Source: Neophaeotheca triangularis
Taxonomy: Eukaryota
Direction: 5' to 3'
NCBI GenBank assembly: GCA_054600435.1
Contig: BAAIJX010000001.1
Coordinates: forward strand, 744,001-808,000
DNA length: 64,000 nucleotides
In this document: one piece after another, positions 4,473-64,000 of the stretch
How the letters are laid out: the number at the start of each line of letters is the position of its first letter
Position numbering within the stretch: the first letter of the stretch is position 1
Program-made: the position numbers and the translations under genes
Notes under the pieces: model-generated
Seen by the model: the letters and a program-made list of their open reading frames with translations, nothing else
The model's database searches: none
Told to the model about the DNA's origin: nothing

Positions 4473-5300
4473 ACGTAGAACGAGAAGCACGAGAGGGACG
4501 GAACAGGTGAAAGAGAAGAGGAAAGAAAAGGGAACGTGAGCAGGGAGATCTCTTGAATTCCGGCTTCCGACGAGCAACGTAAGAGTCGCGCCACCGCCGT
4601 CTTCCTTTGTATCTAATGATCCCTTACCGCTCGTCCAAGTCGGCGGCTCCGTTTGGGATGATGGCCAGGGGCTGTGTGTAGTGGGAACTGTATACACCTG
4701 AAACCCGATTTTTTCGTCGTGGACTTACTTTGCTTCCTTTTTCTCTCCTCTGAGCTAATCTCGTCTTCAACGATTCGCATAACCTGCGTCTTGTAAATGC
4801 ATGAGTCTGATGCATATCTTTAGTCGCAGGCTCTACTGCATGACGGGGAAATCCATCATTTTGGGGAGAATTTCCGTCCAGAGTTTCGCGAGCATCGTGG
4901 GACGCGAGATGCAGATCGCTAGCACAGTCATGGGCTAGTCGATCGTCTCCGGCCTCATCTGAAATCACCTACCTACCCTCACTCGCTGGTAAGACATTCG
5001 AGCAACGATTTCAAGAGGCTTCGTCTTTCGTCGTGGCCGTGGTGTGAAACAGCTTTGGAAATTCTCACCAAGCTGTGTCATGGGTGGGAGAAATGTCCCA
5101 AGGTTCTTGCGTGTAGGGCATTCGCCGCCTCGTCGCCCCTTCTTTCGGGTCGGCTATGACAGAATTCCTTTTTGAGTACTAGCTGGCCATGTCTGTATGG
5201 TCGTGGAGCGGAGACTTTTCCTTCTCCTGGCCCGTCGCGACAGGTGCTCGGAACTCGATAAATCTGGTTTTATAGACCCGTCTCTCCCGATCCGCAGCAT

Positions 5301-30391: not shown

Positions 30392-31616
30392 GTTGACGAT
30401 TCTGCTGTATGAGGCAAGTCGACGAGCGTCGTCCCGCATACACATGGTCGTCGCATCGTTCTTATAACTTGCCTCAATGTGCTTTGTTCCCTAGCGTCCT
30501 GCTCTGCCATCTCAATCCAAGCCTTGGACAAGCTGATGTTCTGGCGCCAAGTTCTGCCGATTACGCAGCGAGAACGCACGCTATCGGACTGGACAGACCA
30601 CGACAGGGTGGACGGGGTATCCACAGTCGGCGTCGCTGCTCCTTTAGGAAGAAGGCCAGCGAGATTCTGGTAGATCAAACCTCGCTCGCAGCTCGAGCAT
30701 AGCGAGCAATAATAATATGTTTGAAGTCATACTTAGTCCTCGTTGCGGGTTCCACTTCTCTTCTTACGACATTGTCAAGCTTTTGCGCGCTGCTCCGAGT
30801 CGGCGGCCGCTGGTTTCGAAACAGCACAAGTCGATGGGGGGCGAGAAGTCAATTTTATTGTATGCTCGACTTGTACGGCGTGAGGCCCACGGACCGCCGA
30901 GAGGAGGAGAAAGCTGCCGAGAGAGTATCACGGCCGCCGCATGGACTTGGCGGAATGCGCAGAAGTAACATGTGTTGCATGTCAGTGGTCATTTTCCATT
31001 TCCCGTGTGCAGGGCAGGGCATATGCGGCCACGGAGGAGGGCCATGGCAGGTAGTGCGGAGGGTGATGGATATTCGTGGAAATGCAGTTGAAGGTGATTG
31101 ATGGTGTGACGATTAGGCATTGGCGGCTTGTTTTGTGACGATCCTCACAACGGCGCCTGGCCAGTGATTTTTCATGGCATCCAAGAGAAACTTGGAAGCT
31201 TGTCAACGCCCTACGATCTGCTCTGTAATTGTATATGTGCTAAGAAGCTAAGGTTGGCGGAGAAAAGAGACGGAACCCTTCATCAGGCCACTCATGACGA
31301 GTACATATAGAGACAAGAGGCTTTGAACCACCTGCAGCATACAAAAAACATCGTCCTATTACAACACAGAGTAGTCGTCACGTGATAGTGGCAAGAAGCA
31401 AAAGCCCCCAGCAGCTGAAAGCGGCATAGCGTGGTTGGACAACCGAGCTCGAGTGGACTTGGAGACTCACTTGACCACTGAACCCGCTGAGTCGCTGACA
31501 CCTGGACCATCTAGCCCCAACATATACACCAGCTTCTCGTACGATGGCGCAATCGGCTTTGATCTCCATGAATATAACCAGAGTCTCGTGGTCGGACGGA
31601 CCTGGCTCGTCCGAAC

Positions 31617-33458
31617 ATGCCATTGTCGGATGAAGAGGAGGAGCATGAGTTGAATTCCTTTCTACCATCCGAGACGACAGACAGCATGGACACCGAGCAC
31701 GATGCTCTCCCTGATGATTCCCAAGGGCATCCCGACTCACGAGTACAGCGCAGGACGCTGCTGAAGCTGGACACGATACTTTTACCCTTTCTCTCGATAC
31801 TATTCCTGTTGAACAGCCTCGACAAAACGAACATTGGCAACGCCGAGAGCGGTGGTTTTACTCATGATGCCGGACTCAGCGAGTACGACTTGAACATAGC
31901 CTTGGCTTTCTTTTTTGCCTTCTTCGTTGCTCTACAGCCAGTGGGAGCCGCGCTGGGAAGGAGGTATGGCATGGCACGTTGGGTCCCAGCATGTATGACG
32001 CTGTGGGGATTGAGCACGTGTCTTCATGTCTTCGTCCATAAGAGATGGCAACTCGTGTTGCTGAGGGTGGTTATTGCTGCGTTGGAGGCTGGCTTCTATC
32101 CAACCACGGTCTCCTACCTGAGCATGTTCTATACAAAATGGGAGTTTGCGAAGAGGCTGGCTGTTTTCTATGGCCAAAGCGCTATCGCTCCAGCAATAGG
32201 CGGTGTCTTGAGTTGGATAGTCTTTCGTCAATATCCCAGGTCGGGAGAAGGAGGACCCCAACTACCGCCCCGAGAGTCTATCGCTGAGCAGCAAGGTGGA
32301 TGGAAGAACTGGCAGGTTCTCTTCGTGCTCGAGGGTTCTGTGACTATATGCATAGCTCTACTAGGTTTCGTGTGGCTTCCACACAGCGCGGATACCGCAT
32401 GGTTCTTGACCCCGGAAGAAAGACAATGGGCCGAAGAACGCATACGACTCGACCGCGAGGGCAGCCAAATCAGCTACAAACGTCGGGCTAGTTCCATCAC
32501 TCCCAGACGCATTTCCGATGACGGCGATCCCACTGGTGTACCTCTACACCTAGATGGAGCTACCCCTGGCGAAGTACACCGTGGACTTCTCGACCAAGAG
32601 GTTGGAGTGCCTCTAGACCGCCAGTACAGCACCATCTCCACCATCTCAGTGACGGCAGACTCTGGCCTAAACAGACACGACATCATTTCAGCTGTGCTCA
32701 ACTACAAGATCTGGCTCTTGCTAGTTTGTAACATTTTGTCAGCCATCCCTGCTACAGCTTTCGGCGTTTTTCTACCCCTCGTCATCAAGGACCTATACCC
32801 TTCTCTCCACCTCTCGCCAGCAGCGTCAAACCTTCTATCAGCCCCGCCTTTCGCATTCGGGGCCATCATATTGTTCATCTTTACAGCATGGTCAGACCGC
32901 AGCAAGAAGCGCCTGACACCAATACTCTGGGGTCTAGGCTTGCTACTGGTGGGGCTGACGCTTACGGTCATGATACCCACAAACAAGTACACATTACGAT
33001 ACTTGTCGCTATGCGTCCTCCTCAGTGGGTCATACGTCGCCTCACCACTTACCGTCGCCTGGCTTACCAACAACACCCCTGAGCCGGGCAAACGTGCCAT
33101 CTTGTTGGGTATCAATGGTTGGGGCAACCTGGCAGGTGTCTTCAGCGCACTACTGTTCAAACCGGACGACGAGAAAAGCGGTTATATCAGGCCCTTTATT
33201 GTAACCTTGTGTTGTGTGATCGCAAGCTTCGTCGGCTTCGTCGCGTTCAAAGCGCTGCTAGTGGGAGAGAACCGATGGCGAAAGAAGGTGGTATCGACTT
33301 TGGAAGAAGACGAGGTCGAACGAGAAGAGATTCTCGGTGACGCTGGAGGATCTCCAAGCCGTGTTCTCGCGGGCGGCCTTGATACTATTGCGCGGCGTTT
33401 AGGAGGAGATGGCAGGCGCAGGGGGGATGAGAAGCTGACCTTCCAGTACGGACTTTGA
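31617..33458 (+). CDS. MFS anion:cation symporter (Dal5/Tna1-like permease)
   Basis: Motifs KLDTILLP..LNSLDKTNIGNA, LEAGFYP..YLSMFY, WQVLFVLEG and FLTPEER. Intronless, 613 aa. Confidence 0.88.
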   Translation: MPLSDEEEEHELNSFLPSETTDSMDTEHDALPDDSQGHPDSRVQRRTLLKLDTILLPFLSILFLLNSLDKTNIGNAESGGFTHDAGLSEYDLNIALAFFFAFFVALQPVGAALGRRYGMARWVPACMTLWGLSTCLHVFVHKRWQLVLLRVVIAALEAGFYPTTVSYLSMFYTKWEFAKRLAVFYGQSAIAPAIGGVLSWIVFRQYPRSGEGGPQLPPRESIAEQQGGWKNWQVLFVLEGSVTICIALLGFVWLPHSADTAWFLTPEERQWAEERIRLDREGSQISYKRRASSITPRRISDDGDPTGVPLHLDGATPGEVHRGLLDQEVGVPLDRQYSTISTISVTADSGLNRHDIISAVLNYKIWLLLVCNILSAIPATAFGVFLPLVIKDLYPSLHLSPAASNLLSAPPFAFGAIILFIFTAWSDRSKKRLTPILWGLGLLLVGLTLTVMIPTNKYTLRYLSLCVLLSGSYVASPLTVAWLTNNTPEPGKRAILLGINGWGNLAGVFSALLFKPDDEKSGYIRPFIVTLCCVIASFVGFVAFKALLVGENRWRKKVVSTLEEDEVEREEILGDAGGSPSRVLAGGLDTIARRLGGDGRRRGDEKLTFQYGL

Positions 33459-44964: not shown

Positions 44965-46880
44965 ATGGCGATGGTTGGCCACGATGCAGAGATGGCCTAC
45001 GTAGCTGAGGCACGTAGGCAATCCGTTACTTCCGTCGAGAAGAAGCATTCCATCGACGAGAAGGGCCCAAATGTCGAATCCGGAAGCATTGGCTACGATA
45101 AGCCTCGCTACGAAGGCGAGCCTTCCGACGACGATTACAAGAACCTGCGCCGTGTTTCTGGCAAGATCCCCTGGACCGTATACACCGTCACCTTTGTCGA
45201 GTTTTGCGAGCGTTTCAGTTACTACGGCACGACTGTCGTCTTCGTCAACTTTATCCAACAAAGCCGCCCATATGGCTCGGCCACTGGTGCCATCAACTTG
45301 AGCGAGGAGTGCTTGAGCCGCTTCGACGAGGCCACTTGCTCTCAGCCTGGCGGTCTCGGACAGGGTCAGCAAGCTTCTACTGGATTGGTCACCTTCAATG
45401 CGTTCTGGGCCTACCTCATGCCTCTGGTCGGTGGCTACGTCGCTGATACTTATCTCGGCCGCTTTGCTGTAAGTCGACCTTCGATTCCATGGAACTGATT
45501 TGTAGCAAATCTGACATCTTCCAGACAATCCAATGGTCCATCCTCTTCGCCATCATCGGTCACATCATCCTCATCGTCTCGGCTATTCCCTCTGTCATGG
45601 ACAGCGAGAATGGTGCTCTCGGCTGCTTCGCCATTGGTCTCGTTATCATGGGTATTGGTACTGGTGGTTTCAAATCAAACATCTCTCCCCTGATGGGTGA
45701 GCAAATCTCAGACGACCGCCCAACCATTGTCGTCCAGAAATCCGGAGAACGTGTCATCAGGGACCCTGCCGTCACCATCTCCAGAATGTTCCTCTACTTC
45801 TACCTCATGATCAACCTTGGCAGCTTGGGCGGACAAATCGGCATGGTTTACGCTGAGCGCAACGTCGGATTTTGGCTATCTTACGCCATGCCAACTTGGC
45901 TGTTCTTCATCGCCCCAATCGTCCTCTTCGCTTGCAAGAAATTCTACATCCGTAGCCCCCCCACGGGCTCTGTGCTTCCCAACTCCATGAAGCTGCTGAA
46001 GCTCGCCTGCAAAGGCAGCTGGTCGCCAAACCCGGTCAAGACCTACAAGAACCTTACTCGTCCTGGATTCTGGGATGCCGTCAAGCCAAGCAGACTTGGC
46101 TCCAACGCCCCTGTTTGGATGAACTCGCTCGATGACTCCTGGGTTGAGCAGGTCGCTCGTGGTTTGAACGCGTGTAAGGTCTTCTTCTGGATGCCCCTTT
46201 ACTGGCTCGCATACAACCAGATGACCGCAAACTTGACGTCTCAGGCCGCTACCATGGACCTCGATGGTGTGCCCAACGACCTCATCAACTCTCTCAACCC
46301 CATCACCCTTGTCATTTTCATCCCCATCATGGACGCCTTCATCTACCCAGCTCTCCGCAAGGCCCGCATTCGCTTCACCCCCCTCAAGCGTATCACAGCC
46401 GGTTTCCTCATCGCCTCCGCAGCCATGGTCACCTCAGCTGTGCTCCAGCACTACATCTACGACATGTCCCCCTGCCCGGCCGACAGTGTGCAAGGCGACC
46501 CCAGCTGCCACGCTCCCATCAACGTCTGGGTCCAAGCCCTCACCTACTGTCTCATCGCCTTCTCCGAAATCTTCGCCTCCATCTCCACTCTCGAGTACGC
46601 CTTCAGCAAGGCTCCCGAGAACATGCGCGGCCTCGTCATGGGTGTCAACCTCTTCTCCAACGCCCTGTCAGCCGCCATCGGTCAGGCTTTCAACCCCTTG
46701 GTCGCAGACCCGCTCCTCGTCTGGAACTACGGCGTCGTTGCCGTTTTGGCTTTTGTCGGCGGTGTCGGTTTCTGGATCACCTGGAGATCTCTCGATGCTA
46801 GGGAGGACGAGCTCAACCACATCGAGGCCTCCAAGTATGTTGGCAAGGAAACTGGTCGCGGCGATGAAGAATCCAACTAG
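44965..46880 (+). CDS. PTR2: POT/PTR family di/tri-peptide transporter, 2 exons
   Basis: ExxERFxYYG motif (EFCERFSYYG), GGYVADTYLGRF, GTGGFKSNI and FYLMINLGSL. Intron 45469-45524. Confidence 0.95.
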
Positions 46881-47601
46881 ATTCGCAGCGGGTTGTGATG
46901 TGTGCATGATTTCTTATTTATATACCTTGAGTATGACTAGTTGAATGAATTTAATCTTGATCAAGTTTCAACTCCCATGATAGCCACAATCTTCCAAAAC
47001 TTCCCACATGGTTGCCCCTAACTTCTCATCACCCCAGCCCTTGAAACATACGAATTTTCCAACACAGCTTGGATATGTAGGTAACATTGCTACTAGAACG
47101 ATACTCAGTAAACCTGCTCTGGCGAGCGATCAGGGGCTGCGAAAGGCCTCTACATAGTGATTCTCGGCTCACACGCGCACATAGCCCCCTGCATCGTCGA
47201 CCCAGCTGTGGTGCTCTGATCTTTCCCACTGGAGCCATCGAAACGCCCCTGAGCGAGCACTACCGAGTGTACCGAGTGGGAATTAATTGCTAAGCTGAAT
47301 GGATGTTCTTTGAGGAAGAGACTGCGCTTTCCCTTCGCCATCTAGCAGTAATAGTACTCTGTTTCATCGTACTAGTCATGGTTTCGAGTTGAGATGTGTG
47401 CTTTCAACTACATGTACTTGTATGTTTGCCTTAGTAAGGTAGTGACAGGAAGCCCCAGAGTGCACGGATCAACTCAAGTCCGTAATCGTCACCATTGCTA
47501 GGCGAGCGAGCTCCTCAAGCATACCTTACCTCGCAACTGGTACACTTTACGACTTGAAGACGACATCACCCGTACCATAACAGCACGTCCAATACACACC
47601 A

Positions 47602-49011
47602 ATGTCAGCCCCTACTAGACCAGCCATGCGCCTCTTGTCACCTCGCGTGCAGCATTACATGCGCACTGGCCGAAGATGCGTTCCTTCTCTGCCCGCCAAG
47701 GCCATTATTGGCCAGCAGACGAGATGCCTCTCCTCCCGTTACAGCAATCCGAGTAGACGCTCAGCATCCACCGCTCCCAGTCAGGAGTCTTTCTTCGTAG
47801 ATCCAACGCTCAGCCGCGACGATGCGCTATTCAACCGCCCGGCAGCAGGAAGCGAACAGACTTTCAACCCTTTGGATGCAAGAGCTGCCCAAATCGCCGG
47901 TGAAGAGAAGAGGCAGTACCATCTGAACAGGATGCGCTTTGCCGGTGTTGGTATGGCATTGAGTTTTGTCGCACTGGTGCTGTCCATCTACAACATCGAC
48001 TTGGACGACATGGAGAAGGCTGAGAAAGGTCGTAGCTCGAACAAGCTGCAGCTGGACGCTTCAAACGAAGCCAACAAGGAGTTTCAGGGTAGGGAGGTTC
48101 ACATCATAGGGAGAGGAGAGGACAAGAGAATCACTGCGCAAGGTCCTAGCGGGGAGATCGAGCTCGTCGAAACTGGTACAAGCAGCGTGCCGCACTTCCC
48201 CAAAACGATCTACCTGCCCACCTCACCTTCATCCTCGGCACCCACAGACTCCCCCACCGCAGTCGGCACAGCGGCTCCCAACGCCCGTGAGAACCCAGGC
48301 AATGCCGCCAACCAAGAAGAATACACGCTACTCGGTCTCGGCATTCGCACTGTCTCCTTCCTCAGCATCCAAGTCTACGTCGTAGGCATGTACATCCGCA
48401 CCAAAGACATATCCAGTCTGCAAGAGAAGCTCATCCACAAGATCAACCCGGAAGCCTCGACACTCATTCCGTCGGAGAAGGGCGAGCTGCAGCGCCGTCT
48501 CTCCGACCCGGAAAGCAGCCGCGAGTTGTGGACCGAATTGCTCGCAGTGCCCGGCATGAAGACGGCGTGGCGTATCGCGCCGACCAGAAATACCGATTTC
48601 GCGCACTTGAGGGATGGCTGGATTACGGGCATTAACAAGCGTATTACGGAAGCGCGGCAGGCGGCCGGACAGGATACCGAGCTCGACGGCGACGCTTTTG
48701 GCGAGTCAATGAGGCATTTCAAGGGTATCTTTGCCGGCGGCAAGGCCCCCAAGGGGAGTGTCATGATTCTTGCGCGGGACAGAATGGGCGCGCTGGATGT
48801 GCTGTTCCAAGAGAAGCCCGAGCAGCTGGGCGGGGACAAGGAGATGCAGGTGCTGGGTAAGGTCGAGGACGAGCGGGTTGCGAAGCTGATCTGGCTGGGT
48901 TACCTGGGTGGCAAGAATGTGAGTTCTGAGGCTGCGAGGCAGGGAGTCGTTGATGGTGCTGTCAAGTTTGCCAGCAGGCCTGTTGGGAGTGTCGAGACCA
49001 TGGTCACTTGA
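47602..49011 (+). CDS. Mitochondrial chalcone-isomerase-fold protein (Aim18/Aim46-like)
   Basis: Arg/Ser-rich presequence, one TM segment, and motifs LLGLGIRTVSFLSIQVYVVGMY, PTRNTDFAHLRDG and YLGGKNVSSEAAR. Confidence 0.85.
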   Translation: MSAPTRPAMRLLSPRVQHYMRTGRRCVPSLPAKAIIGQQTRCLSSRYSNPSRRSASTAPSQESFFVDPTLSRDDALFNRPAAGSEQTFNPLDARAAQIAGEEKRQYHLNRMRFAGVGMALSFVALVLSIYNIDLDDMEKAEKGRSSNKLQLDASNEANKEFQGREVHIIGRGEDKRITAQGPSGEIELVETGTSSVPHFPKTIYLPTSPSSSAPTDSPTAVGTAAPNARENPGNAANQEEYTLLGLGIRTVSFLSIQVYVVGMYIRTKDISSLQEKLIHKINPEASTLIPSEKGELQRRLSDPESSRELWTELLAVPGMKTAWRIAPTRNTDFAHLRDGWITGINKRITEARQAAGQDTELDGDAFGESMRHFKGIFAGGKAPKGSVMILARDRMGALDVLFQEKPEQLGGDKEMQVLGKVEDERVAKLIWLGYLGGKNVSSEAARQGVVDGAVKFASRPVGSVETMVT

Positions 49012-51796: not shown

Positions 51797-52037
51797 AGCG
51801 CTAGAGTGTCTAGCACGTGATATGGTGCAGTGTAGAGTGAGAGGGTGAGCAAGACAGAACGTAGCGATGAAGTATCTAGCTTGCGGTCGGTGCGGTGTCG
51901 AGAGGAGGAAGAGGTTTTAGCGATGAAGTGTCCAGCTGAAGTGTCCAGCACGCGGTCAGTGCAGTGCAGAGACGCGGAGAAAGGGAAGATCTTGCGATGA
52001 GAAAGAGAAGTTCTGGCGATGAAATGTCTAAGACGCG
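51797..52037. repeat. Degenerate spaced direct repeat, ~40-bp core x4
   Basis: Core resembling AGCGATGAAGTGTCTAGCACGCGGTCGGTGCAGTG at ~51797, 51863, 51919 and 52015 (partial), separated by purine-rich spacers. Confidence 0.75.
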
Positions 52038-52319
52038 AATGTTAGCTAATATGATCGCACCGATACTATCATATCTTCAGAACGTGGCGTGTAAGAAGTG
52101 AACGTCCGGCCTTCTACTGGTTCACAGGGGTCGCCTTCTTGGCTCCGGGCTTGTTGTGCTCCTATTCATTGGCGTGCCACACTCTTATGAACAAGCGAGA
52201 AGCACTGCCGTGTTCTATGCACAATGTGGCAGTAGTATATCATCTTGACCAGCTAGCTGCTGCCGGAAGATTGCGTTCCTGCATAGGGAAGGCTACTCGT
52301 AGCAATGCTTGCGTTTCCC

Positions 52320-53088
52320 CTAGAGCTTCACGCTAGCCTTGAGCACAGCAAAAGCATCGTCCTTGCCGCCATTAAACCTCTCCTCGGCAGTCTTCCAGTT
52401 AACCACAGACCAAATATTCTCCACATACGCCGCCTTGCCGTTCAAGTACTGCAAGTAGTAAGCGTGCTCCCACATGTCAACACCGATGATCGGCACCGAG
52501 CCATCGACAATAGGATCCTGGTCTTTGGTCGTCACAATGCTCAACCTATCGCTGTCCGCAGCCTTGACGAGCCAGCCCCAGCCACTGCCCTGGATGCCGA
52601 GCAGGGACTTGTTGAAAGCGGCTTTCATCTTGTCGACGCCACCGTACTGGGCATCGATTGCGGCGCTGAGTTTGGGTGCAGCAGAGGGTTTGGCTCCATC
52701 CGAGGAGGTAGGGCAGAGGTTTTGCCAGAAGAGGCTGTGGTTGATGTGGCCGCCACCGTTGAATTTGATGGCTTGTTGGTTGGCGATCTGGGCTGGAATG
52801 TCTTTGGATTGCAGCGAGGAAACGCTGACTTTGAGGGCGTTGTTCAGGTTTGTGATGTATCTGGGTTAGGGTAAGCGTTGGTATCAACATGTCGTGAGTA
52901 CCAGGTATTTCCCTACGTCTGATGGTGCTTCGAGTGGTGGAGTTCCATGATCTGCTTAGAGATCGCTGGTTCCAATGCCTGGTATGCTGTCAGCTACGCC
53001 GTCGACTACAGTGCCTCCTGGCCGGGCTCTTCTTTACATCATATGCGTAAGGCAAGGGTGGTAAAGAATATGTTGTTGCTTCAGCCAT
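52320..53088 (-). CDS. Mn superoxide dismutase lacking a mitochondrial presequence (cytosolic Sod3/SodC type), 3 exons
   Basis: MAEATTYSLPPLPYAYD|ALEPAISKQIMELHHSKHHQT|YITNLN, KFNGGGHINHSLFW, GIQGSGWGWL and DMWEHAYY. Introns 52979-53037 and 52861-52916. Confidence 0.95.
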
Positions 53089-53306
53089 GATGTCGGTATC
53101 GCGTTGGTGTTTTGAGCAGGCTCGAGTCGCTGAAAGGTCCTTGGTACTATAAGTTTCTGCTCGTCCTGTGAGTTACGACGACAATGGGGAGGAAATGTGG
53201 ACAACTACAAAGAGCTAGGAGGATTGGAGAGGTGTGAGGGGTGTGAGGGGTGCCGAACAAGTGCAGCTACCTTGATGGCGATGTTGATCACGTGACCTGC
53301 AACATA

Positions 53307-53462
53307 AATGTGCTCATTCTAACGCAGTCCCAAGTACATCCCATCAGCTTGCCGCGACTGGCCCTGAAGGCCGAGCTAATGGTTCCCAGTAGAGCCTGAC
53401 AGAATGGCCATCAAGGTTGCATTCCTGAGCGCATTGGCGTGTCAAGCTGCCAAACGTGCTCA
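53307..53462. promoter_or_regulatory. Three AAYGYGCTCA elements (Mac1-type copper-response-element candidates) in a bidirectional promoter
   Basis: AATGTGCTCA 53307-53316 (+), AATGCGCTCA 53426-53435 (-) and AACGTGCTCA 53453-53462 (+). Confidence 0.65.
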
Positions 53463-53591
53463 TAAAGGCGCTATAAGTTTGTACCTTCAAGAGTTGGTTG
53501 CTTTGTCAATATCGACTACAGCAGTCTTCAGACAAACCAGGCCCTGGACCGTAACTTGATATCTTTTCTACTAGAGCTATAAAGAAAGAAC

Positions 53592-54112
53592 ATGGCTTGT
53601 TGTTCATGCAGCTCGCTGGTCTCGCCGGAGAGCGATGCCTACGGCGCCATGTCCGTTATTCAGCCGCTAGCACTCGGTCCAGCAAGAAAGGGGGTCGCCT
53701 GCAAACTGCTCTTTGGTCGTCCTCAGTCGCAACCCAAAGGTCCCGTCAAAGTCGCCATTCGGCTCGAGCGAGCGGAAGACGCACTGCGAATAGCGTCGTC
53801 CAAAATTCTTATCCAGTAAGTCGCGAGAAGGCATGGCCGCGAAACAAGGCAGTCGCTAAGTTTACCAGTGAGGATGGCGATCTCCGGTTGTCCGGGAAGC
53901 GAGATGGCTCTAAATCAATCTTCGAGCTCCCTCTTGAGATGCAAAACCCAGTCGTTTCTGACAAGGCAACTGAACTGGAAATTTCCTACCTGGTTGAGGA
54001 TCCCGATTTCGATTTGTCGGTTGGGGGGAGCAAGGGTATCGTAGCGCGGAGGGTCACACTTGTTGACCGTGATGGGTCGATATGCGGCGACGGTGTAGTT
54101 GGCCGTCTCTGA
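53592..54112 (+). CDS. 155-aa Cu/Zn-SOD/CCS-fold-like small protein with N-terminal MxCxxC, 2 exons
   Basis: ATG in strong context (AACATGG). Intron 53816-53868 (GTAAGT..GCTAAG..CAG) fuses ORFs 53592-53819 and 53597-54112 and creates ILIHEDGDL. C-terminus GIVARRVTLV..ICGDGVVGRL. Confidence 0.78.
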
Positions 54113-54554
54113 GGCAAGTCTTGAGGGGAAATGCATGAGTGAAGAGTTGGAAATCTACGATAAGAGTCAAGGCACTAGGTGCGGGTTCACCTTCCTCGCG
54201 GCGAGTCGCAGATCCAGACTATTAGTCACCTTGCCTGCTCGCGTGACGGTGTGTCCTTTCGGCTGGCGTGGGACAGCCACGGGCTTTCTGCACACTGCTG
54301 TCTTCGCAAGCAATGGATAGCTTCGTGCAGAATAGAGAGGGAAGCTTGCTGCGATCTCGGCTGATCGCAGCTCCGTATCGACTGTGGTCTTCTCTGCTCG
54401 AGCCCAAGTGTAGCCTCATACAGTTTATGCAGGCAGAGACGGGGAAGTCAGTGCCAGTTCTCATACCGCAGGGGAGCATTCTTGCTAGCCACCTACACAT
54501 CATAATCCATCTTAAAAGGAAGTTCATCCGGCCATTCACCAATGTAAGTAAAGA

Positions 54555-55343
54555 TCACAATTTCGATCTACCACTCCCAATCGACTGGAGAAATTCCAGG
54601 ACGGCCTTATTGAAGGCTTTCGGCTGGTCGATGTTGGCAGCATGCCCTGCATTCGGGATGGTGACCTTCTTCGCTCCAGGTATCCGCTGAGCCATGTATT
54701 CACAAGCACCCAAGAACGGTTTGTCATCGCCTCCGACAACTACCAGGGATGGCACGGCAATGGCAGGCAAGGACTCGATGACTGCCGAGTTACGCTGGGC
54801 CAGCATGCCGCGGGCAGCGAGAGCCAGGCCTTTCGCGTTGCGATGCGTCACCTGAGAGCGCTCGGCACTCGCGGATTGCAAGCGAAATAGCCCATCCCGG
54901 TCGAATCGCGCAGCAGTCTCGTGCGCATTCTTGTTCCATGCCTCTCGCGCCTTGTCGTTCCGATACCCTGGGCCGGTGTCGATGATCAACAGTTTGATAA
55001 CACGCTGCGGATGCAGGCGATAGAAGGCCAGGCTCATATAGCCACCCAGTGACAGCCCACCTACAATAGCAGGGTTCTCTCTGCCGCAGACGTCGTCCAG
55101 AAGAGCTGCCATGTCGGATACCGTGTGCGCTTCGCTGTACGCCGAGGGATCCTCCGGATACGACGTCTGGCCGTGTCCGCGCATGTCCCAGGTAATGACT
55201 TTGTAGCCAGCGCTGGTGAGAGCTTCGATTTGGCCTTGCCACATTGCTGAGGTTGAGGAGTATCCGTGGCTCAGAAGCATAGGGACGCCTGTGCCGTGCA
55301 TTTCATAGTAGAGGCTGACGCCGTTGTTATCGAGGAAAGGCAT
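54555..55343 (-). CDS. Alpha/beta hydrolase, intronless, with C-terminal PTS1 (SKL)
   Basis: Probable start MPFLDNNGVSLYYE at 55343. HGY, WDMRGHGQ, nucleophile elbow GLSLGG, VGGDD acid and AGHAAN His. Ends GRSKL*. Confidence 0.9.
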   Translation of the reverse strand: MPFLDNNGVSLYYEMHGTGVPMLLSHGYSSTSAMWQGQIEALTSAGYKVITWDMRGHGQTSYPEDPSAYSEAHTVSDMAALLDDVCGRENPAIVGGLSLGGYMSLAFYRLHPQRVIKLLIIDTGPGYRNDKAREAWNKNAHETAARFDRDGLFRLQSASAERSQVTHRNAKGLALAARGMLAQRNSAVIESLPAIAVPSLVVVGGDDKPFLGACEYMAQRIPGAKKVTIPNAGHAANIDQPKAFNKAVLEFLQSIGSGRSKL

Positions 55344-56279
55344 CGTTTTGGAATTTATGTTTCTCAGTGGGATTTTCTCGCTCGTCTCTACCAAACTTGT
55401 CAGCGTAGAAACAGAGAGAATGGCTGGTGGGCTCCAAATCAATATGTCCAATCCCCTCACTCGTTGCCTCGGCGTTGAATTGTCCTGGGCAGACTCTGCC
55501 GCACTCTGCTTCTGCGGGGTTGACCTAATGCTCATCCTCACACACACACCAGTCTCGATTCTTTGGCAAAGTGTAACCGAATGCTCGCCGGAATGCTTCA
55601 GCTTCATCCTCTCGTGGGTCTCTGGCTAATGTACGTCCGCTCCTTGGCTGGCACTACGATACAGCTGGCGCAGCAACACCCGCAGAGCACGTCAGCTCAA
55701 AACATCGCGGCCGCGGCGTCAAGTGTCCAGTGCTGGGATCGGATATGAGTAGTTGGGGCGAAGGTGTTGACGAGATGAAGTCGGTCATCAAAGAGCGTGG
55801 TGGCCGCCGAGAAGTGTGCCTTCCTCACATCGACCCCACCAAACCTTGATCCAACCGCAGCTGCAAATGTGTATATTGAACAATAATCGTGTTTGATCAA
55901 TTTGTTAATACGAGAGCTAGATGATGGCTGAAAGGGTCCGAAGAAGTCAAACAATACTCGCAGCACCTCCTGGACGTTGTAGTTTCAGGTGACGCGGAAG
56001 CAGAGAGCTTTTCGTCACAGCCAGATGGTGGATGTCGATGGGATCAAAGCTTTATATCGTGATCATCGTAAACCTCGTTAGGGCAGATGATACATTAATT
56101 AGGACCAACCGTGTGATTAAATTGTTTGAAAAGTGTCCTCGAGGAACTTCTATATTCTATCAATGCATCTAATGTTTAATCTCAATATTCCATCGAAACC
56201 CCTACATGTTTGCATGCATTTCCTGCTCTGTCCAAATCCTCATCTCTCAAAAGGTCCGTAGACCGGGTATCGCAAACAT

Positions 56280-57930
56280 TTATTTGACAGCCTCATCGGA
56301 ACTGTCCCCCTTCTCCGCAGTCTCAATGTCCTCACCACCAACGTCGCGGAGACCAAGTTCCCTCGCCATCTGGGGCAATTGATCAAGCTCCAAGTACGGC
56401 ATGTTGTTAGCGACCTGGAAAGGCCACTTGCCTTCGACATAAGCCTTCGCGAAGATAATGTCAATCTCTTCGAGATGACGTCCGGCGGTCTCGGGGTAGA
56501 AGAACCACGCAACCGGGACAGCGAGAAGGTTGACTAGGGCAAAGAAAAGGTAGAGACCCCAGCCAGACGCTTGCGAGAAGACGGGCGTGAACATGACGAC
56601 TGCAAAATTACAGATCCCTAAAGAGTTGTCAGTTCAGAGTTTGACCGGTTTTTAAGCTCGGACACTTACAGTTGGTACATGTCGAAACGGCGACAGCAGG
56701 CGTACGGGTACGAAGAGGGTTCACTTCTGGGGGATAAATCCAAGGCAATGGGAGGATGGTAAAGGCGAAGAAGACGATGAAAAGGTAAATTCCGACGGCA
56801 GCACCACGAGCATTCGCTGGAACTGGGTCCACCAGGCATCCAAAAGTGATGATGAACGATAGACCCTGGCCGAGGAAACCGATGAGGAAGAGCTTGCGGC
56901 GACCAACCTTCTCGATCATGAAGAATCCAGGAATGGTTGCCAATGCGTAGATCGTAGCAAAGACACCACCCAAGACGAGGGATAGGCGATGATCGAGACC
57001 AATGGTATTCTCGAAGAGGATAGTCGAGTAGTAAATAGCCGCATTGCATCCAGTGAACTGCTGGAAGAACTGAGTGCTCGAGCCAATCATCATGCGGCTG
57101 AATTGTTGAGTCTTGCCGAACTTGAAAAGGTCGCCGTAGCCACCGGAAACGTTACGCTCCGCATCAGCCTTCATAAGCATAAGGTCGGAAATGACAGCTT
57201 CGTCGTCAGGAGTCGTGACGTGGAGAGCAGCCAGAACTTTGCAGGCCTCGTTTTCATAACCGTGGCGTACGAGCCAGCGGGGAGACTCAGGCAAGCTGTA
57301 AATGCCGACGACCAAGATCGACGCGAAGAAGATCTGGAAGGCAACCGGGAATCGCCATTGAACCGTAGAGTCGACGTAGGACAGGCCAAAATCGATCCAG
57401 TAGGCGATGAAAGTACCAACAGCGATAACGGCACCCTCAAGACAAACAAGGAGACCACGGTTCTTTGCTTGCGAGGTTTCAGATTGCCAGATGGGAATCG
57501 TCGCGGTATTGGCGCCATTGCCGAGTCCGGAGATTACACGACCAACGACAAACGTACCCAGGGCCCATTCGTTTTCGAAGGCGCAAGTTGAGATGATTGC
57601 GCCGATGATCAGGATGATACCTCCGCCGAAGACGGTTCTGGTGCGTCCAATCTTGTCGCCGTAGATGAGGGTGAAGATTGCGCCGAAGAAGCAACCGATT
57701 TCGTAACAGGCTGTGACAGCGCCACGAACAACTTCAACGTGCTCGGCTTCGGAATCAGAAGCATCCTCGGGAATGTAAGTCTCAGGGAAGGTGATATTGA
57801 ATTGCTCTCCAGAAATCAGACCAGACATGAGACCCTGATCATAACCGAAAAGGGAGAAACCCATAACGGCGGTAACAGTGATTGCGATTCGGAGCTTGTT
57901 GCCCGTCAGGCCACTCGTTGTTGTCCACAT
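56280..57930 (-). CDS. STL1: MFS sugar porter, glycerol/H+ symporter Stl1-like, 2 exons
   Basis: Motifs GFSLFGYDQGLMSG, IPIWQSETS, WRFPVAFQ, QFFQQFTGCNAAIYYS and PWIYPPEVNPLRTR. Intron 56618-56669. Confidence 0.85.
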
Positions 57931-60449
57931 GTTGGGTGGGTATCTGCGCTACCAGAGCGCAAAGGGAATAGATAAAAAGACAACGGATGCGGATGGAGAA
58001 GAAAAGGAAGAATGCTGGGGGAGCGGGGGGAAGCCATATTTATTATTGCAATTGGGACGAAATATTTCGTCCTGACCCGCGCAAATGCCGACGAGCAACG
58101 ATCCGAAGGTAATCCAAACGAAAAGCCATCAAAGGTTGGTGGCGCCAACTAGCGACGGCGGTGGTGGAGCAGAGACTCCATCGTTGAAGACGTGCGCCAA
58201 GGCCGGAAGTAGGAGGGCAAGCAACTTTTGAAGCCAACGAGGGCGCGCTAACCGTCGCTAAGCCATTTTAGTGGCTTGAGAAAAATCTCTTCGACATGTT
58301 TGGCGTGCGCGTGGCAACGCTTGGCCGACTCTTACGTCAAGTGCTGGCTTTATCGCTACATCACTCGTCCAACCTCTGAGCATGCTCCGAGTTTTTACCC
58401 ACTTGGGCCCTATGTTCGGACCATTACACGGCTCAACGTTTGTTGTGTTGATGTTTTGTTCCTTACTTTCACCGTCACCACCGTCACCACCGCCGCTACG
58501 AGCGTGCAAAGGGCGCTCATAACATCATGTGCGGCATGCCCTGTGATTCGCGAATAGCAGCTGCTCCGAATCCGACACAAGCCTGCCTCGTCGGCTCAGA
58601 CGGAGTCAGTCCCCTTGATTTTGTCATTACGAGCTCTGCCCGTTGCATGACCACGCGCCATTTTTTGCGAAATTATTAGCGCCTCCCGCAACTCCACCGC
58701 CGTCACCCCATCAACTCCATGAACTCGGCAGCCGATGGTAGCCAGCCCTCTCCCACCAGGAACCCGCACAATCCCCAGCTCCCAGAAGGGACCCTCGAGC
58801 AGCGAGCTGTTTACGTGAGCCGGCCAACCGAGAATTTTCTCTGCAGGATGATCATTCTCTACAGAATAATGTATACAGTCTTTGCACGATTTTTTCCAAC
58901 CTCAACATCCCGTCTTGAACTCGCGCGCCGCTTGCATTAACAACGATCGACGTTATATCAGCCTTACCTTCACTTCTGTCTTGGTGCCACGCCTCAGCGC
59001 TGTTCTTGCCCGGGACAAGCACGAACAAACTAACCCAAGCGGCCCCACGTAAGCCTTGAACCCGAGTAATACCAGCAATGCTATGACCAAGCCAAGTGAG
59101 CTTCATCCAGCCGAGCAATCTCACATCGACAACATGTCATGAAATCCTTCGCTCTCGGCGCGGCAGTTAGATATACTCGTTCTGCGATAGCTTCGCAACC
59201 ACTGGCTGGGACTAGAGACTCTTTCGAATTGCTGCAAATTGCTGTGAGGAAGCGCTGACCACCGTCAAAGAATCAAGGGGGGAAAAGACAGAGAAATGAA
59301 AGATGCTAGACGCATGAATAATTCAGCCCCGAGATCCGACGAATACTGCGACCCCGTACTGTATCGTACCGTCATGCCTCACTCCGGCCGGGCTTCCACA
59401 CGCTCCCACAAGAGCCAAAACGGCACAGCAGCAGCAGTGAGCCCTCCCCTGGCACCCTGCATAGTCGACTACTATCCCCTAGGGTTCCGTAAAACAATAC
59501 CGTATCTGTAAACCGTCCTCCAACCCTCCCACGTCTCCCACCGCCTCCCTGTGATTGCCCCGCGGTGCCAGCTCCGCGCACATGCCGCTGTGGGCGCTGT
59601 GGGTGTGCCACATGGAGCAGAAAAACATATACGGTGGGTCAACCCAAACATCGAGATGAAGTGCGTGTGGGTCAGAATCTCCGACTGCTGAGTCTTTCAA
59701 CTGGCCGTCGCTCTGACGACCCTGGGTACCCTCGCATGGCGACGAGATTCGCAACAAATTCAGACAAAAACCAATTTGTAACAACACCCGTAGTCCGTGG
59801 AGACACTGGAGACCAACACGTGAGGTTTCACTATCGATGCGTGCATGCTTTGAACTACAGAAGGCTATTCAGTCCACCTGCTTGTCGTCGGATGGGGATG
59901 GCGGCAAGCCGTTGCGCATGGCGCTGTTGCTCCCTTCGATTTCCTATGCATCAGCACGGTTGGAGAAAAGGCGATAGGGCATCTGCGCCCTCGAAAGCTT
60001 CCGGATCATCGTCGCCCACGCGACGTAGCTGCCGCTGCGACAGTAGTGCTCCCCGTGTCTTGGGAGCTTTCTCGATCAGGACGGTTAACTATTGCACTTC
60101 GACATAGAAGGGCAGGTCGAGGCGGGGGATGGTCTCGGGATAACATTCGCCAAGGCAGTGGTGAAGTCCAGTATTCCGAATCTCTAGGGATCGACCATCT
60201 AATAGGTTCCCCTTCCGTTCGCAACTGTCGAACCCAACCGACCACCTTTCCTGGTCGTTTCGTAGATGCATTACTTGACGGGTGACCAAGCAAACCACTT
60301 CCTGTCGCCCAACGCACTTGTCTTTTCTTCCGCGCAGCTTGTAACACCCCATCCCTGTATCGCTCTAGCCATAGCCCTTTGAAAAGCGATTGCCTTGCAG
60401 TCAATCTTGCAGTACAAGCGCTGTACGAATACCATCATGATCATCATCC

Positions 60450-61619
60450 TCAACCGTGAGCGGCTTCACCAATGCGCCAACTTCTCAAGTCTTCTCTTAT
60501 GTCAAACTCATCCACCTCCCCGGGTGCCTTCCTGGGAGCCATATCCCCCCTCTGCTTGTACCCAGCAGGTCGCCTCTCCAAGCTGCCCCTCTCATTGACC
60601 CCATCCTTCTGTATCAATGGACTCCTCCAAGACGATCTATGCCGATGATGATGATGGTGATGGTGGTGGTGATGATGACGAGGCGAGCGATCCGCCTCAC
60701 CCACATCCCTATCCACTCTAGGCGTACTAGCCCCAGAGCCCCCAGAACTCGACGGCTGCATCTTCTCATCCGGCGGTCTGCCCCCCTTACCCCACCCATC
60801 CCCTCCCGCAAAAATATCCTCAATACACTCGTCCGCCTTCATCTCCCCAGGCTGGCTGCTCCAATAAGCCGCCAACGTTCGCCTGTACAAATCCTGCATC
60901 TCCAACTCCCCCTTTCGATTCCCCAAACTCGGCATCGAGTCCAAAGTCCCCTGCCCGCCATTCCCACTCCCCGCACCCCCCTCCTCCCCCTGCGAATGCG
61001 AATTGCCCCCAGCACCCACCGCCTCCCCCGCACTCGACACAATGCCGGCGATGCCGCCAAAAACCTGCGCGCTCCGCAAAGGCGGCGCCGAATACTCCTT
61101 GGTGCCCTCGACATGCCTCAAGCCCAATCCAATCTTCAGCGTCGAATTGATCTTACTCTCCTGCATAAGATACCTCCTCGTGACTCCAAACCCACCACCA
61201 CCACCACCACTCTCCCCCTCCCCCCCATTACCACCACCGCCACCACTACTCCCCCCTTCCTCACTAACCCCCACATACTCCGCCAAATTCACCCGCACCC
61301 TCCCCAACACAATCCGCTCACCACGTCCACTAGACGAGTACTCCTGCACGACCTCGAAAACCACTTCCACCGGCTGCAGCAACCCTTCCTTGCCCACTTG
61401 CAAGCGCACGGTCAGGTCTTTCTGGCAGTCGTATACAACGCGGTGGTCGCGGATCTGGGCTTTGGGGGTGCGGCCGCGGTGCTCGGCCGCTGTGGAAGCG
61501 GGGAGGTGCCATTTGATGAAGCTGCTGCCGCTGACGAGGGGTACGTTGTTGAGGTCGTGGATGTGGAGGTGGAAAGCGAATTTGGGTCGGCGCGATTTGT
61601 GCGGGAGGAAGTTGGACAT
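60450..61619 (-). CDS. NT-type C2 domain (EEIG1/EHBP1 N-terminal C2) protein
   Basis: Motifs PKFAFHLHIHDLNNVPLVSG, LGRVRVNLAEYV and RRYLMQESKINSTLKI. Gly-rich and His-rich tracts. Confidence 0.85.
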   Translation of the reverse strand: MSNFLPHKSRRPKFAFHLHIHDLNNVPLVSGSSFIKWHLPASTAAEHRGRTPKAQIRDHRVVYDCQKDLTVRLQVGKEGLLQPVEVVFEVVQEYSSSGRGERIVLGRVRVNLAEYVGVSEEGGSSGGGGGNGGEGESGGGGGGFGVTRRYLMQESKINSTLKIGLGLRHVEGTKEYSAPPLRSAQVFGGIAGIVSSAGEAVGAGGNSHSQGEEGGAGSGNGGQGTLDSMPSLGNRKGELEMQDLYRRTLAAYWSSQPGEMKADECIEDIFAGGDGWGKGGRPPDEKMQPSSSGGSGASTPRVDRDVGEADRSPRHHHHHHHHHHHRHRSSWRSPLIQKDGVNERGSLERRPAGYKQRGDMAPRKAPGEVDEFDIREDLRSWRIGEAAHG

Positions 61620-61980
61620 TTTGGTTGGTCTGGTCGTGCTTGTTTTGTGTCTACCGTGCGGTAGCTGGGAGGTGTGGGTGTGGTTACATTGTTGGTTGGT
61701 GTTGGGTGGTATTGATCAAGTAGTGACTCGGTTGTATAGCTTGCGGGGGGCGCCTTCAGCGGAATCCAGGTCCCGAGAGTCTGCTTTGCTTCTACTGTAC
61801 GCTTCTATGCGCCAACGACGTCTTTTACTGCAACACTGACGACAAATGGAACGTCGATCCGAGAATGAAGTGGCACTGTTAGTCTCTATTACAGAACCAT
61901 GCCTATATACTGAATTACCACCAACACCATCGCTAATCAAGAGAAAGCCCATACCCAAACCCTTACCCTCCATGTATCTA

Positions 61981-64000
61981 TCATAACCTCACCCTCCCAT
62001 CCTCAGCCCTCCCACCAAACCACCTACTAAGTCCACCCGACTGCGCCCCAGCACTCTCCTGCCGGTCATTCTGCATCCACTTCGGCGTCTTGAAACCCGC
62101 GCTCAGATTCTGCACCCACTCGGGCCTCTCCACAGTATCAAAGGTATTGCGCACTCTCTCGGTGAAGTCCTGGTAGAAATGCCGGGCCCCGTCATCCTCT
62201 TCCTCTTCTTGGTTGGTAACCGAGTTGAAAGTCCTGCGCGCCTGCATTGTACCCTCGCTCTCGCCGACGGTGTTGCGGGTCTGGTTCGCTCTTTGGGGGA
62301 CCCCCGTGCGCGATGGGCTGGAAGTGCCAGCCGTAGAGCTGACGGGGCCACGGCGGTCGTAGTCAAGAGACTCGCCCCCGCGCGAGGCCAGCCCAACGTT
62401 GCCGCCGCCTTCGCCGCCTTGCTGTAGTTCTCGATCTATAAGGGCACGGCCTTCGCGCCAACCACCCGTGCCGAAACCGGAAGGATTATTCTCGCTTTCG
62501 TCCTCGAGGACGCCGAAGCCGACGACGCTTTTGATCTTGCCGTAGACGTTGAATAATGTCATTAGTACGGGTATTAAGAGGAAGCAAGGGAAGAAGGCGC
62601 TGAAGCCCGTCCCGAGCGGTGTGAGGTTGATGAGCTTGCCTAGGAAGGCGTAGAAGCTGGTGTCTTTGTAAACGTCCCTAGGCATCATCGTGATAAAATT
62701 GTAGGATAGGGGCACAGTGAGTTTGGCGACTTGCAGGCTGTACCAACAAGCGCTTTCGGAGTATGTCTGGCGTTTGACCAGCGCACGGTTGCCCCAGACC
62801 TTGACGTCAGCAATGGCGTACAGAGCGCAGGCGTCCATGTAGAAGAGCCAGGCGGCCGCAATCACTTGCCCAGCTAGTCCTACTCGGCCCGCTTCGGAGT
62901 TTTTGTGATGTACGACGGTCAAGCCAATGACGCTGAGCTTTGAGGTGAAAGAGCTGGCAACTTCGCTGTAGATCACCAAAGCCGAAGCTACCGCGAAGAA
63001 GGCCGCAAGCGCGATGCGGAGCGCCGGTACAATCCGAGCGTAGATTGTGTAGCGCATGGTCGGAGTCAAGAAGTTGTGTTGTCCAAGCAGGGAATGGGAG
63101 ATGGATCTCTCGCGGCCAAAGTCCAATTGTTGCGACGAAGCAGCGTCCAGTATCGTCTGGGTGTCCTGTGCCCTCTGGCATAGAGTGGTCCACTCGTCGA
63201 TGAACCTCGTCTTCTTGTGTTTCGCGCGTTTGAACTTTCTCGTCAAATCGGCCAGATAGCGCTCTGTTACCACAGCCGGTATGTTGACGTTTGTCGCACG
63301 TACGGCAGCTGTAGCCCCTGGCCTCGATTCTGGCAGTGCTGCCGTATCAGCCAACTCATCGATCCATTCCTGTAGATTCCTGCTCGTTCCGTGCTTCCTC
63401 TGCTTAAGTTGCGTAATCGTATTCTCCAACTGCTCCAACTGCTCAGTCGCCTCGTCCAGCTTCTCCCTTGTCCGCGGCGCCTGAGCCTGCAACCTCCTCA
63501 ACCTCTCGCTCGCGTGTGCATTCTTGAACAATCTCCTAGGAAGTGCCACCATGCCATGTCCCATCAAGCCGAGACCCAGTATCAACCCCCAAGCATACGC
63601 CAGCGCCATGACCAGCCCCTTGATGCTCGATCCGTGAAACCCATTCTGCAGGATGAAGTAGACCAAACCTGCGGTGCCCGTTCCCAGCACGATCAATTGG
63701 TATCTCAAGTTACTCCTAGCCGAGTCAATGACCCTGCTGCGAGTATCCCTATATCCAGAATCACAATACTCCCCCAGCAGTGGCAGCATGAACCACGTGA
63801 GGAGAAACGTGAGCCAATAAGTGATGCGCCATGTGACCAGCAGGACTCGCTCGTTTAACCAGATGCCTCTAGTATGTTTGTTGCCGCTATCGATTGAAGC
63901 GAGGTCGATGGGGACGAGAAGGATGATGCTACAGGGGAGAGCTAGGGCGAGGAAGACAGGGACCAGGAGGTAAGCTGGGGTCGAGCGCAGGGGGAGGTAG
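61981..64000 (-). CDS. LMBR1-family membrane protein (5' end beyond the window)
   Basis: Frame is open to the window edge (YLPLRSTPAYLLVPVFLALALP..LVPIDLAS..WRITYWLTFLLTWFMLP). Motifs EYCDSGYR, GHGMVALPR and KLTVPLSYNF. Confidence 0.88.
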   Translation of the reverse strand, partial: YLPLRSTPAYLLVPVFLALALPCSIILLVPIDLASIDSGNKHTRGIWLNERVLLVTWRITYWLTFLLTWFMLPLLGEYCDSGYRDTRSRVIDSARSNLRYQLIVLGTGTAGLVYFILQNGFHGSSIKGLVMALAYAWGLILGLGLMGHGMVALPRRLFKNAHASERLRRLQAQAPRTREKLDEATEQLEQLENTITQLKQRKHGTSRNLQEWIDELADTAALPESRPGATAAVRATNVNIPAVVTERYLADLTRKFKRAKHKKTRFIDEWTTLCQRAQDTQTILDAASSQQLDFGRERSISHSLLGQHNFLTPTMRYTIYARIVPALRIALAAFFAVASALVIYSEVASSFTSKLSVIGLTVVHHKNSEAGRVGLAGQVIAAAWLFYMDACALYAIADVKVWGNRALVKRQTYSESACWYSLQVAKLTVPLSYNFITMMPRDVYKDTSFYAFLGKLINLTPLGTGFSAFFPCFLLIPVLMTLFNVYGKIKSVVGFGVLEDESENNPSGFGTGGWREGRALIDRELQQGGEGGGNVGLASRGGESLDYDRRGPVSSTAGTSSPSRTGVPQRANQTRNTVGESEGTMQARRTFNSVTNQEEEEDDGARHFYQDFTERVRNTFDTVERPEWVQNLSAGFKTPKWMQNDRQESAGAQSGGLSRWFGGRAEDGRVRL

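Follow-up and report, generated by a model that had tools for sequence, protein, structure and literature searches.

A divergent pair of a cytosolic manganese superoxide dismutase gene and a small, putatively spliced gene across Mac1-type motifs in Neophaeotheca triangularis

Replacement of the copper/zinc superoxide dismutase (SOD) Sod1 by a cytosolic manganese SOD (MnSOD) is established in Candida and Fusarium, driven directly by Mac1 in the latter, and the products made together with the replacement enzyme have barely been explored. Candida albicans swaps SOD1 for SOD3 under copper starvation (PMC5198983). In Fusarium oxysporum, Mac1, with the consensus DHNTGCTCANNN, directly activates the cytosolic Mn-SOD gene sod3 in low copper; sod3 (FOXG_04389) and FOXG_18820 form a Mac1-bound cluster, both members of which are up in low copper, and several other Mac1 targets are arranged as divergent pairs around a common promoter with more than one site (PMC11563359). 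MacA of Aspergillus fumigatus has been reported to bind TGTGCTCA in copper-transporter promoters (PMC6514546). The present analysis concerns a locus of Neophaeotheca triangularis within a stretch of 64,000 nt (contig BAAIJX010000001.1, positions 744,001 to 808,000; hereafter the window), at which an MnSOD gene is paired head to head with a small gene whose two proposed exons would encode a protein of 155 amino acids (aa).

The locus resembles the F. oxysporum sod3 cluster in that a cytosolic Fe/Mn-SOD gene adjoins a second gene, with a TGCTCA-core Mac1-type site between them. It differs in that the F. oxysporum neighbor is oriented differently, whereas the window pair is divergent and holds three such cores, and in that expression was reported for the F. 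oxysporum genes, whereas in the window it is the motifs that suggest regulation (PMC11563359). As with C. albicans SOD3, the MnSOD of the window has no presequence and is a possible copper-independent stand-in for the cytosolic Cu/Zn-SOD; unlike the window pair, the C. albicans swap is described, in the available parts of the report, without a partner gene (PMC5198983). The product of FOXG_18820 is not stated in the available passages of the F. oxysporum report or in its supplementary files 1-12, 14 and 16, where the gene appears as a label in S5 Fig, and our literature search found the name solely in that work (PMC11563359).

From the Candida and Fusarium reports it follows that a copper-sparing SOD switch was already known, including in Pezizomycotina. 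The initial annotation of this DNA, made from the sequence itself, knew of no description of such a two-gene module; this claim is weakened by the published pair of sod3 and FOXG_18820. Our search of the literature on such a small protein, or on a divergent partner linked to an MnSOD gene, returned nothing closer than PMC11563359. What is new here is the divergent arrangement and a partner without detectable relatives beyond one protein fragment.

Anatomy of the pair and its shared promoter

The larger gene encodes an Fe/Mn superoxide dismutase of the presequence-less, cytosolic subtype. Its spliced model is free of stops, comprises 217 aa beginning MAEATTYSLPPLPYAYDALEP and contains introns of 59 nt (GTAAAG...CAG) and 56 nt (GTAGGG...CAG), and Pfam assigns both Sod_Fe_N (5.7e-11) and Sod_Fe_C (6.4e-36) to its last exon. 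The conserved YSLPPLPYAYDALEP begins six residues after the model start, and on the 5' side of the ATG the frame stays open for 28 codons that include no further ATG. Lacking any alternative in-frame start upstream, the enzyme has no mitochondrial presequence and is thus of the cytosolic sod3 type. Direct reading confirms the head-to-head layout put forward in the initial annotation, with 503 nt between the two ATGs.

Some minor observations concern the same gene. Public sequencing run X1 holds short MnSOD-like pieces, 85-95% alike, that come from other organisms. The C-terminus of the MnSOD (52320-52334) reads ...KASVKL, an ending which we take to be near, though not equal to, the canonical SKL-type peroxisomal signal. 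Just 3' of the stop lie tandem repeats, a 13-mer in two copies (51924-51949) and a 22-mer in 2.1 copies (51977-52022), within a purine-rich, G-skewed region (51800-52100).

The small gene starts at an ATG (53592) in good context (AAGAACATGGC, with A at -3 and G at +4). From there the exon-1 frame runs open to a TAA (53817-53819) that sits within the candidate donor GTAAGT (53816-53821), while the acceptor stretch GCTAAGTTTACCAG finishes at 53868. Joining 53815 to 53869 creates the codon CA|T for His, and reading continues to a TGA (54110-54112). The coordinates of the two open reading frames (ORFs) and of the canonical 53-nt intron proposed to join them were thus borne out by direct reading. 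The spliced product would be a mildly acidic protein of 155 aa and 16.5 kDa with an isoelectric point (pI) of 5.9. Its sole His, as claimed from the outset, is residue 75, encoded over the junction, and its Cys are residues 3, 4, 6, 37 and 147, the first three (nt 53598-53609) within the N-terminus MACCSCSS. There are 53 GT..AG pairs of 40-199 nt whose removal leaves ATG 53592 and the stop at 54112 in one frame, and among them the proposed intron is the one with a consensus donor, GTAAGT occurring 13 times on the plus strand of the 64 kb. The intron contains a branch-like GCTAAG, reaches its CAG 53 nt on from the donor and is similar in size to those of the MnSOD gene (59 and 56 nt). On these features we regard the proposed splice as likely to be correct.

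Between the two ATGs, TGCTCA cores are concentrated. The window contains 43 of them, both strands counted, and the 503-nt spacer contains three where 0.34 would be expected (Poisson P=0.005). At least three cores are found in 8 of 1270 sliding 503-nt windows, which fall in two places, the MnSOD/small-gene spacer being the sole intergenic one. All three spacer cores match the F. oxysporum Mac1 consensus derived by chromatin immunoprecipitation sequencing (ChIP-seq). The two plus-strand sites are each embedded in the 12-mer AAAYGTGCTCAT, present in two copies in 64 kb, and GTGCTCA occurs 11 times in the window and twice in the spacer. From the site at 53455-53462 it is about 10 nt downstream to a TATAAG (53473-53478) and about 130 nt to the small-gene ATG; the core at 53113 may lie in the 5' untranslated region (UTR) of the MnSOD gene. 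The link to copper limitation, drawn in the initial annotation from the C. albicans precedent, thereby gains independent motif support from Mac1/MacA-type sites in the shared promoter.

The spacer has other features. The AGGGG cores of its tandem repeat presumably resemble general stress-response elements (STRE); the spacer shows no enrichment of AGGGG (P=0.26). A palindrome, TCACGTGA (a CACGTG E-box), occupies 53288-53295, some 15 nt before the exact TGTGCTCA site; the window has 38 copies of CACGTG, both strands counted.

Conservation of the small gene was observed in exon 2. An exhaustive HMMER search with this exon against 1.84 billion representative proteins returned seven matches at E<=0.001, the one credible relative being P0003, an independent 61-aa protein fragment from the assembly of a public run. 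Residues 20-80 of exon 2 align with it gaplessly to a common C-terminal end, with 39 of 61 identical (64%) and 85% positives, and the exchanges are mostly I/V, D/E, S/A and Y/F. Within this conserved and probably beta-rich C-terminal block, conservation is highest in the stretch FDLSVGG.KG.VARRVTLVD..GSICGDGV.GRL. At the position of the Met that begins P0003 the window has Leu, and at that of the internal Met of exon 2 it is P0003 that has Leu, so that no exon-2 Met is kept between the two, which points to an upstream coding exon. We consider it very likely that the small gene is real.

The other six matches are long proteins of 555-3468 aa. Four of the six were covered by a Pfam scan, P0007 and P0009 being left out: three are bacterial Big_6 or Cna_B repeat adhesins with 12-15 repeats, and P0006 shows just scattered sub-threshold families. 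These long matches were rejected as repeat-inflated similarity to a short V.L.D.DG strand-turn motif. Nothing was retrieved from the word index, whether by exon 2 (longer and near lengths) or by exon 1 (near length), blanks that carry little weight since even P0003 was missed. A metagenome scan with the exon-2 alignment produced 279 pattern matches and zero relatives, and in a scan for the VARRVTLVD-coding pattern tblastn showed nothing past the pattern itself at 91 loci. The small gene is lineage-restricted and almost without detectable relatives in current protein collections.

Features of the divergent pair in the window
Feature	Coordinates	Strand	Details
Fe/Mn superoxide dismutase gene	52320..53088	-	exons 53088-53038, 52978-52917, 52860-52320; Pfam
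Shared (bidirectional) promoter region	53089..53591	.	503 nt between divergent ATGs
Third TGCTCA core	53113..53118	-	25 nt upstream of MnSOD ATG
Tandem GAGGGGTGT x2.9	53227..53252	+	two AGGGG cores
Exact MacA site TGTGCTCA	53309..53316	+	within 12-mer AAATGTGCTCAT; TGCTCA core at 53311
CGTGCTCA, 7/8 match	53455..53462	+	within AAACGTGCTCAT; TGCTCA core intact (53457)
Exon 1 (proposed)	53592..53815	+	74 codons + 2 nt; direct reading
Intron (proposed)	53816..53868	+	53 nt; GTAAGT...GCTAAG...CAG
Exon 2 (proposed)	53869..54112	+	last base of His75 codon, 80 codons, stop
Conserved C-terminal block	53927..54109	+	protein residues 95-155, 64% identity to P0003

Proposed co-induction under copper limitation and its rivals

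The explanation that we tentatively favor, and to which as a whole chain we give somewhat less than an even chance, is that of a Mac1-type bidirectional pair of sod3 and the small gene, co-induced under copper limitation and yielding a small thiolate-cluster protein. When copper is scarce, a Mac1 orthologue would bind the TGCTCA sites of the 503-nt spacer and turn on both divergent genes. MnSOD would then take over from Cu/Zn-Sod1, in line with the copper-sparing swap already described, and would be accompanied by the small protein, made at that moment too. Our best guess is that this cytosolic protein binds or passes on Cu(I) via its N-terminal CCxC. Alternatively, the N-terminal cysteines could be S-acylated and tether the protein to a membrane.

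The cysteines lend themselves to more than one comparison. The initial annotation recognized in them the MxCxxC Cu(I) motif of Atx1 and CCS domain I: M1-x-C3-x-x-C6 does fit it literally, although the motif stands at the extreme N-terminus with no domain around it, the letters finding no match in the HMA profile (Pfam) or in the fold modelled around them (AlphaFold2). An HMA domain has a beta-alpha-beta-beta-alpha-beta fold around MxCxxC, and in the small protein residues 2-33, 35-39 and 41-44 were modelled without secondary structure at a predicted local distance difference test (pLDDT) score below 50. Cys3-Cys4-x-Cys6 can equally be read as a CCxC triplet, which in COX17 binds Cu(I). The small protein shares this triplet with COX17; unlike COX17, in which it belongs to a twin-CX9C CHCH fold, it carries the triplet at the extreme N-terminus (PMC7909247). 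A Cys cluster within the first six to nine residues is also found in acylated SH4 anchors of the Vac8 type; myristoylation there needs Gly2 (MGxxxS/T), whereas residue 2 of the small protein is Ala (PMC3308974). Palmitoylation alone, without myristoylation, is possible at the N-terminal Cys.

A series of observations weighs against this explanation of the pair. As regards the protein, Pfam finds no HMA domain at E<=1, there are no CX9C pairs, the only Cys besides the N-terminal cluster being 37 and 147, and AlphaFold2 gives exon 1 a pLDDT of 52.6 with one helix (residues 61-69) and the rest mostly unstructured. The promoter motif TGCTCA is a mere 6-mer, one of its three sites lies 25 nt from the MnSOD ATG, the motifs may serve MnSOD alone, and the other place with three cores (32011-32285, all on the minus strand) is inside a long ORF (31578-33455). 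Credible relatives of exon 2 amount to one, P0003, among the 1.84 billion representatives, a library that includes public genome proteins; with this lone relative, conservation of exon 2 rests on a single pair that offers no DNA for a ratio of non-synonymous to synonymous substitution rates (dN/dS). No relative of exon 1 was found by word-index search (near length), in the ESM Atlas or among PDB sequences. In codon usage, exon 1 has log-odds of -0.002 and exon 2 of 0.085, both in the lowest 5-12% of coding chunks, the reference being 240-nt chunks of 15 long ORFs of the window (median 0.25, 5th percentile 0.007, 10th percentile 0.065). The antisense frame that is codon-aligned with exon 2 reaches 0.157, more than exon 2 itself; the antisense 79-aa ORF (53915-54154) has no Pfam family at meaningful E-values. 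Finally, neither the splice nor an exon-1 transcript was seen in reads and contigs of the two runs with any of the stretch, X1 and X2, each of which covers a small share of it.

The scope of this last point is narrow. A contig of 174 nt from run X2, whose RNA origin is a guess, spans 53858-54031 with one letter different, and it enters the proposed intron by 11 nt, too few for bridging, so that it is silent on splicing; the uncovered 53592-53857 carries no evidential weight. The missing read or contig support for the splice would nevertheless suit a different gene model, in which the C-terminal ORF is real and is preceded by another first exon or start, the Cys cluster and the junction His being artefacts. 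Such a model would also accommodate the weak codon bias of exon 1 (-0.002) and its lack of relatives, and since the exon-2 frame is open over 53555-54112, one option is an unspliced ORF of 168 aa that begins at ATG 53606 and whose N-terminus is very basic and rich in Arg and Ser. Over its first 90 residues, however, this ORF has a pI of 11.9 and an R+K+S content of 38%, as is typical of sequence read out of frame, the codon score of its N-terminal part is lower still (-0.11), and the 168 aa yield no Pfam family at meaningful E-values. The proposed model, on the other hand, has a consensus GTAAGT exactly where the exon-1 frame closes, the branch-like GCTAAG and the CAG 53 nt on, and a good start context at ATG 53592. 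We consider a wrong gene model unlikely.

We likewise hold it unlikely that the adjacency is coincidental, the small gene being a young orphan outside copper and superoxide biology and the TGCTCA sites acting on MnSOD alone or occurring by chance. The tiny size of the family (one relative in 1.84 billion representatives, with exon 2 matching nothing but P0003), the shortness of the motif with its second three-site cluster in a coding region, and the different orientation of the sod3 neighbor in F. oxysporum (PMC11563359) would all agree with a chance arrangement. Against it, the 12-mer shared by the two best sites is found nowhere else in the window, one of these sites lies beside a TATA-like element some 130 nt from the small-gene ATG, and Mac1 targets of F. 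oxysporum are often divergent pairs (PMC11563359).

Should the pair indeed be co-induced from a shared Mac1-type promoter, the small protein would be a candidate new player in the fungal copper economy. Its gene also exemplifies a conserved short, putatively spliced gene with almost no detectable relatives. The narrow distribution limits its general importance, which would be greater only if a SOD1-derived fold were proven, in which case the small protein would represent a new class.

Relation of the small protein to Cu/Zn-SOD and CCS

The Cu/Zn-SOD fold is an eight-stranded Greek-key beta-barrel, and the active enzyme binds copper through four His, has a His3Asp zinc site and needs an active-site Arg. 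With a single His and no zinc loop, the small protein cannot be an active dismutase, in agreement with the initial annotation, which had excluded a normal SOD. The same annotation saw in it a Cu/Zn-SOD barrel akin to CCS domain II, and suggested that it could be a degenerate pseudo-SOD or anti-chaperone with a Cu(I)-binding N-terminus that would dock on Sod1 or Ccs1 and redirect copper while MnSOD takes over. Precedents of this kind exist. Viral pseudo-SODs are catalytically inert and compete for chaperoned copper (PMC7605207), and both CCS domain II and viral SOD homologues are SOD1-derived, have lost metal ligands and act via protein contacts or copper competition (PMC13017621, PMC7605207). 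They remain recognizable as Sod_Cu, in contrast with the small protein, which no test that we ran recognizes as such, and no small intracellular SOD1-derived form is named for fungi in the available parts of PMC13017621.

The profile searches do not support such a fold. With each exon peptide taken separately, Pfam finds no family at E<=1, neither Sod_Cu (PF00080) nor HMA (PF00403), and no SOD or CCS chain is among the PDB sequences matched up to E=10 by exon 2, by a profile of exon 2 and P0003, or by exon 1. For the conserved GIVARRVTLVDRDG stretch, the PDB sequences that match best belong to a thiol peroxidase beta-hairpin (E 0.07-0.17) and to ribosomal protein L6. The 'IxGRxxV-like' strand-turn-strand, matched best by thiol peroxidase and not by SOD1, is thus not specific to SOD1, and the same holds for short motifs of this kind, on which the barrel had been predicted.

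A custom SOD1 profile was also built, from 117 SOD1-like viral-contig genes (HVHEFGD-coding pattern) that gave 106 ORFs of 130-230 aa, 85 of them unique. Against the resulting hidden Markov model (HMM), the spliced protein scores -0.4 bits (hmmsearch --max), a value equalled by 96 of 2000 composition-preserving shuffles. In hhalign at low stringency, comparison with the 85 SOD1 sequences gives a score of 15.8, a P of 0.088 and a probability of 0.65%, with 14 of 253 column shuffles equal. The alignment is collinear over 134 columns, placing HEDGD on HEFGD, IVARRVTLV on IIGR..VVH and ICGDGVVG on ACGVI; at its low confidence, His75 falls on the second His of HVHEFGD.

Structure prediction and embedding searches leave a similar picture. 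AlphaFold2 was applied to the exon peptides separately and not to the spliced whole; exon 2, with P0003, is modelled with six beta strands at a pLDDT of 48.9. Foldseek of this model against PDB finds nothing at E<=0.001, its best E-value being 1.0, and no SOD, a blank that carries little meaning because confidence in the model is too low. Queried with exon 2, the ESM Atlas feature search ranks a cluster of an unnamed Ascomycota family first (0.93), the second cluster scores 0.89 and has Sod_Cu on 24% of its members, and the ten best family-bearing matches are of one family or clan. Atlas scores below 0.9 count as leads only, and a third of shuffled proteins also give ten concordant matches; exon 1 has no usable match. 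Co-folding of the two exon peptides gave scores of 0.32, 0.49 and 0.30, the mark being 0.34 and the controls lying at 0.00-0.01, and was used for neither side.

Taken together, a SOD1 resemblance at about p = 0.05 and one soft lead are insufficient for membership, though compatible with a very remote relationship, and the small protein is not demonstrably a homologue of SOD1 or CCS. That it has a SOD1-derived fold at all seems rather unlikely. As for the pseudo-SOD that would redirect copper from Sod1 or Ccs1, the collinear alignment, the Atlas cluster with Sod_Cu, the six predicted strands, the position of the gene beside a SOD under Mac1-type motifs and the viral precedents speak in its favor. 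Set against these are the empty Pfam and PDB searches, shuffles that equal both the HMM and hhalign scores, the low-confidence models and the exon 1 modelled as helix and disorder rather than strands, in addition to the single His and the absent zinc loop, and we judge this proposal improbable. More ambitious still, and very improbable in our estimate, is a previously unrecognized, extremely diverged intracellular Cu/Zn-SOD derivative, devoid of metal sites, with shorter zinc and electrostatic loops and a newly gained CCxC Cu(I) site, that Mac1 would co-induce with MnSOD and that, during starvation, would spare copper or re-route it by acting on Sod1 or Ccs1; it would, if true, be a fourth eukaryotic SOD1-derived class beside CCS, Cu-only SODs and CSRP.

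Surroundings of the pair in the window

As a whole, the window has the look of nuclear DNA of ascomycete type, its introns being short. The genes flanking the pair have no obvious copper theme (45447-49008 and 56632-63999). On one side are a POT/PTR2 transporter (45447-46877) and a chalcone-isomerase-like protein (47581-49008), and on the other, on the minus strand, an MFS sugar transporter (56632-57948), an NT-C2 domain protein (60453-61715) and an LMBR1-like membrane protein (61984-63999). Downstream of the small gene, a metatranscriptome contig of 186 nt from run X1 is identical over 54243-54400 and extends past 54400. This segment is situated between the small-gene stop and the stop of a convergent alpha/beta-hydrolase gene (54555-55625, minus strand) and may be the 3' UTR of the latter, the contigs showing neither strand nor transcription. 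Toward the start of the window, 3193-4724 is a repetitive stretch rich in G and C at third codon positions (GC3-rich) that contains several long overlapping ORFs on both strands, with repeats of SAGYSAGY and PAE/PAV types, and is probably one gene for a low-complexity protein rich in Ser, Gly and Pro.

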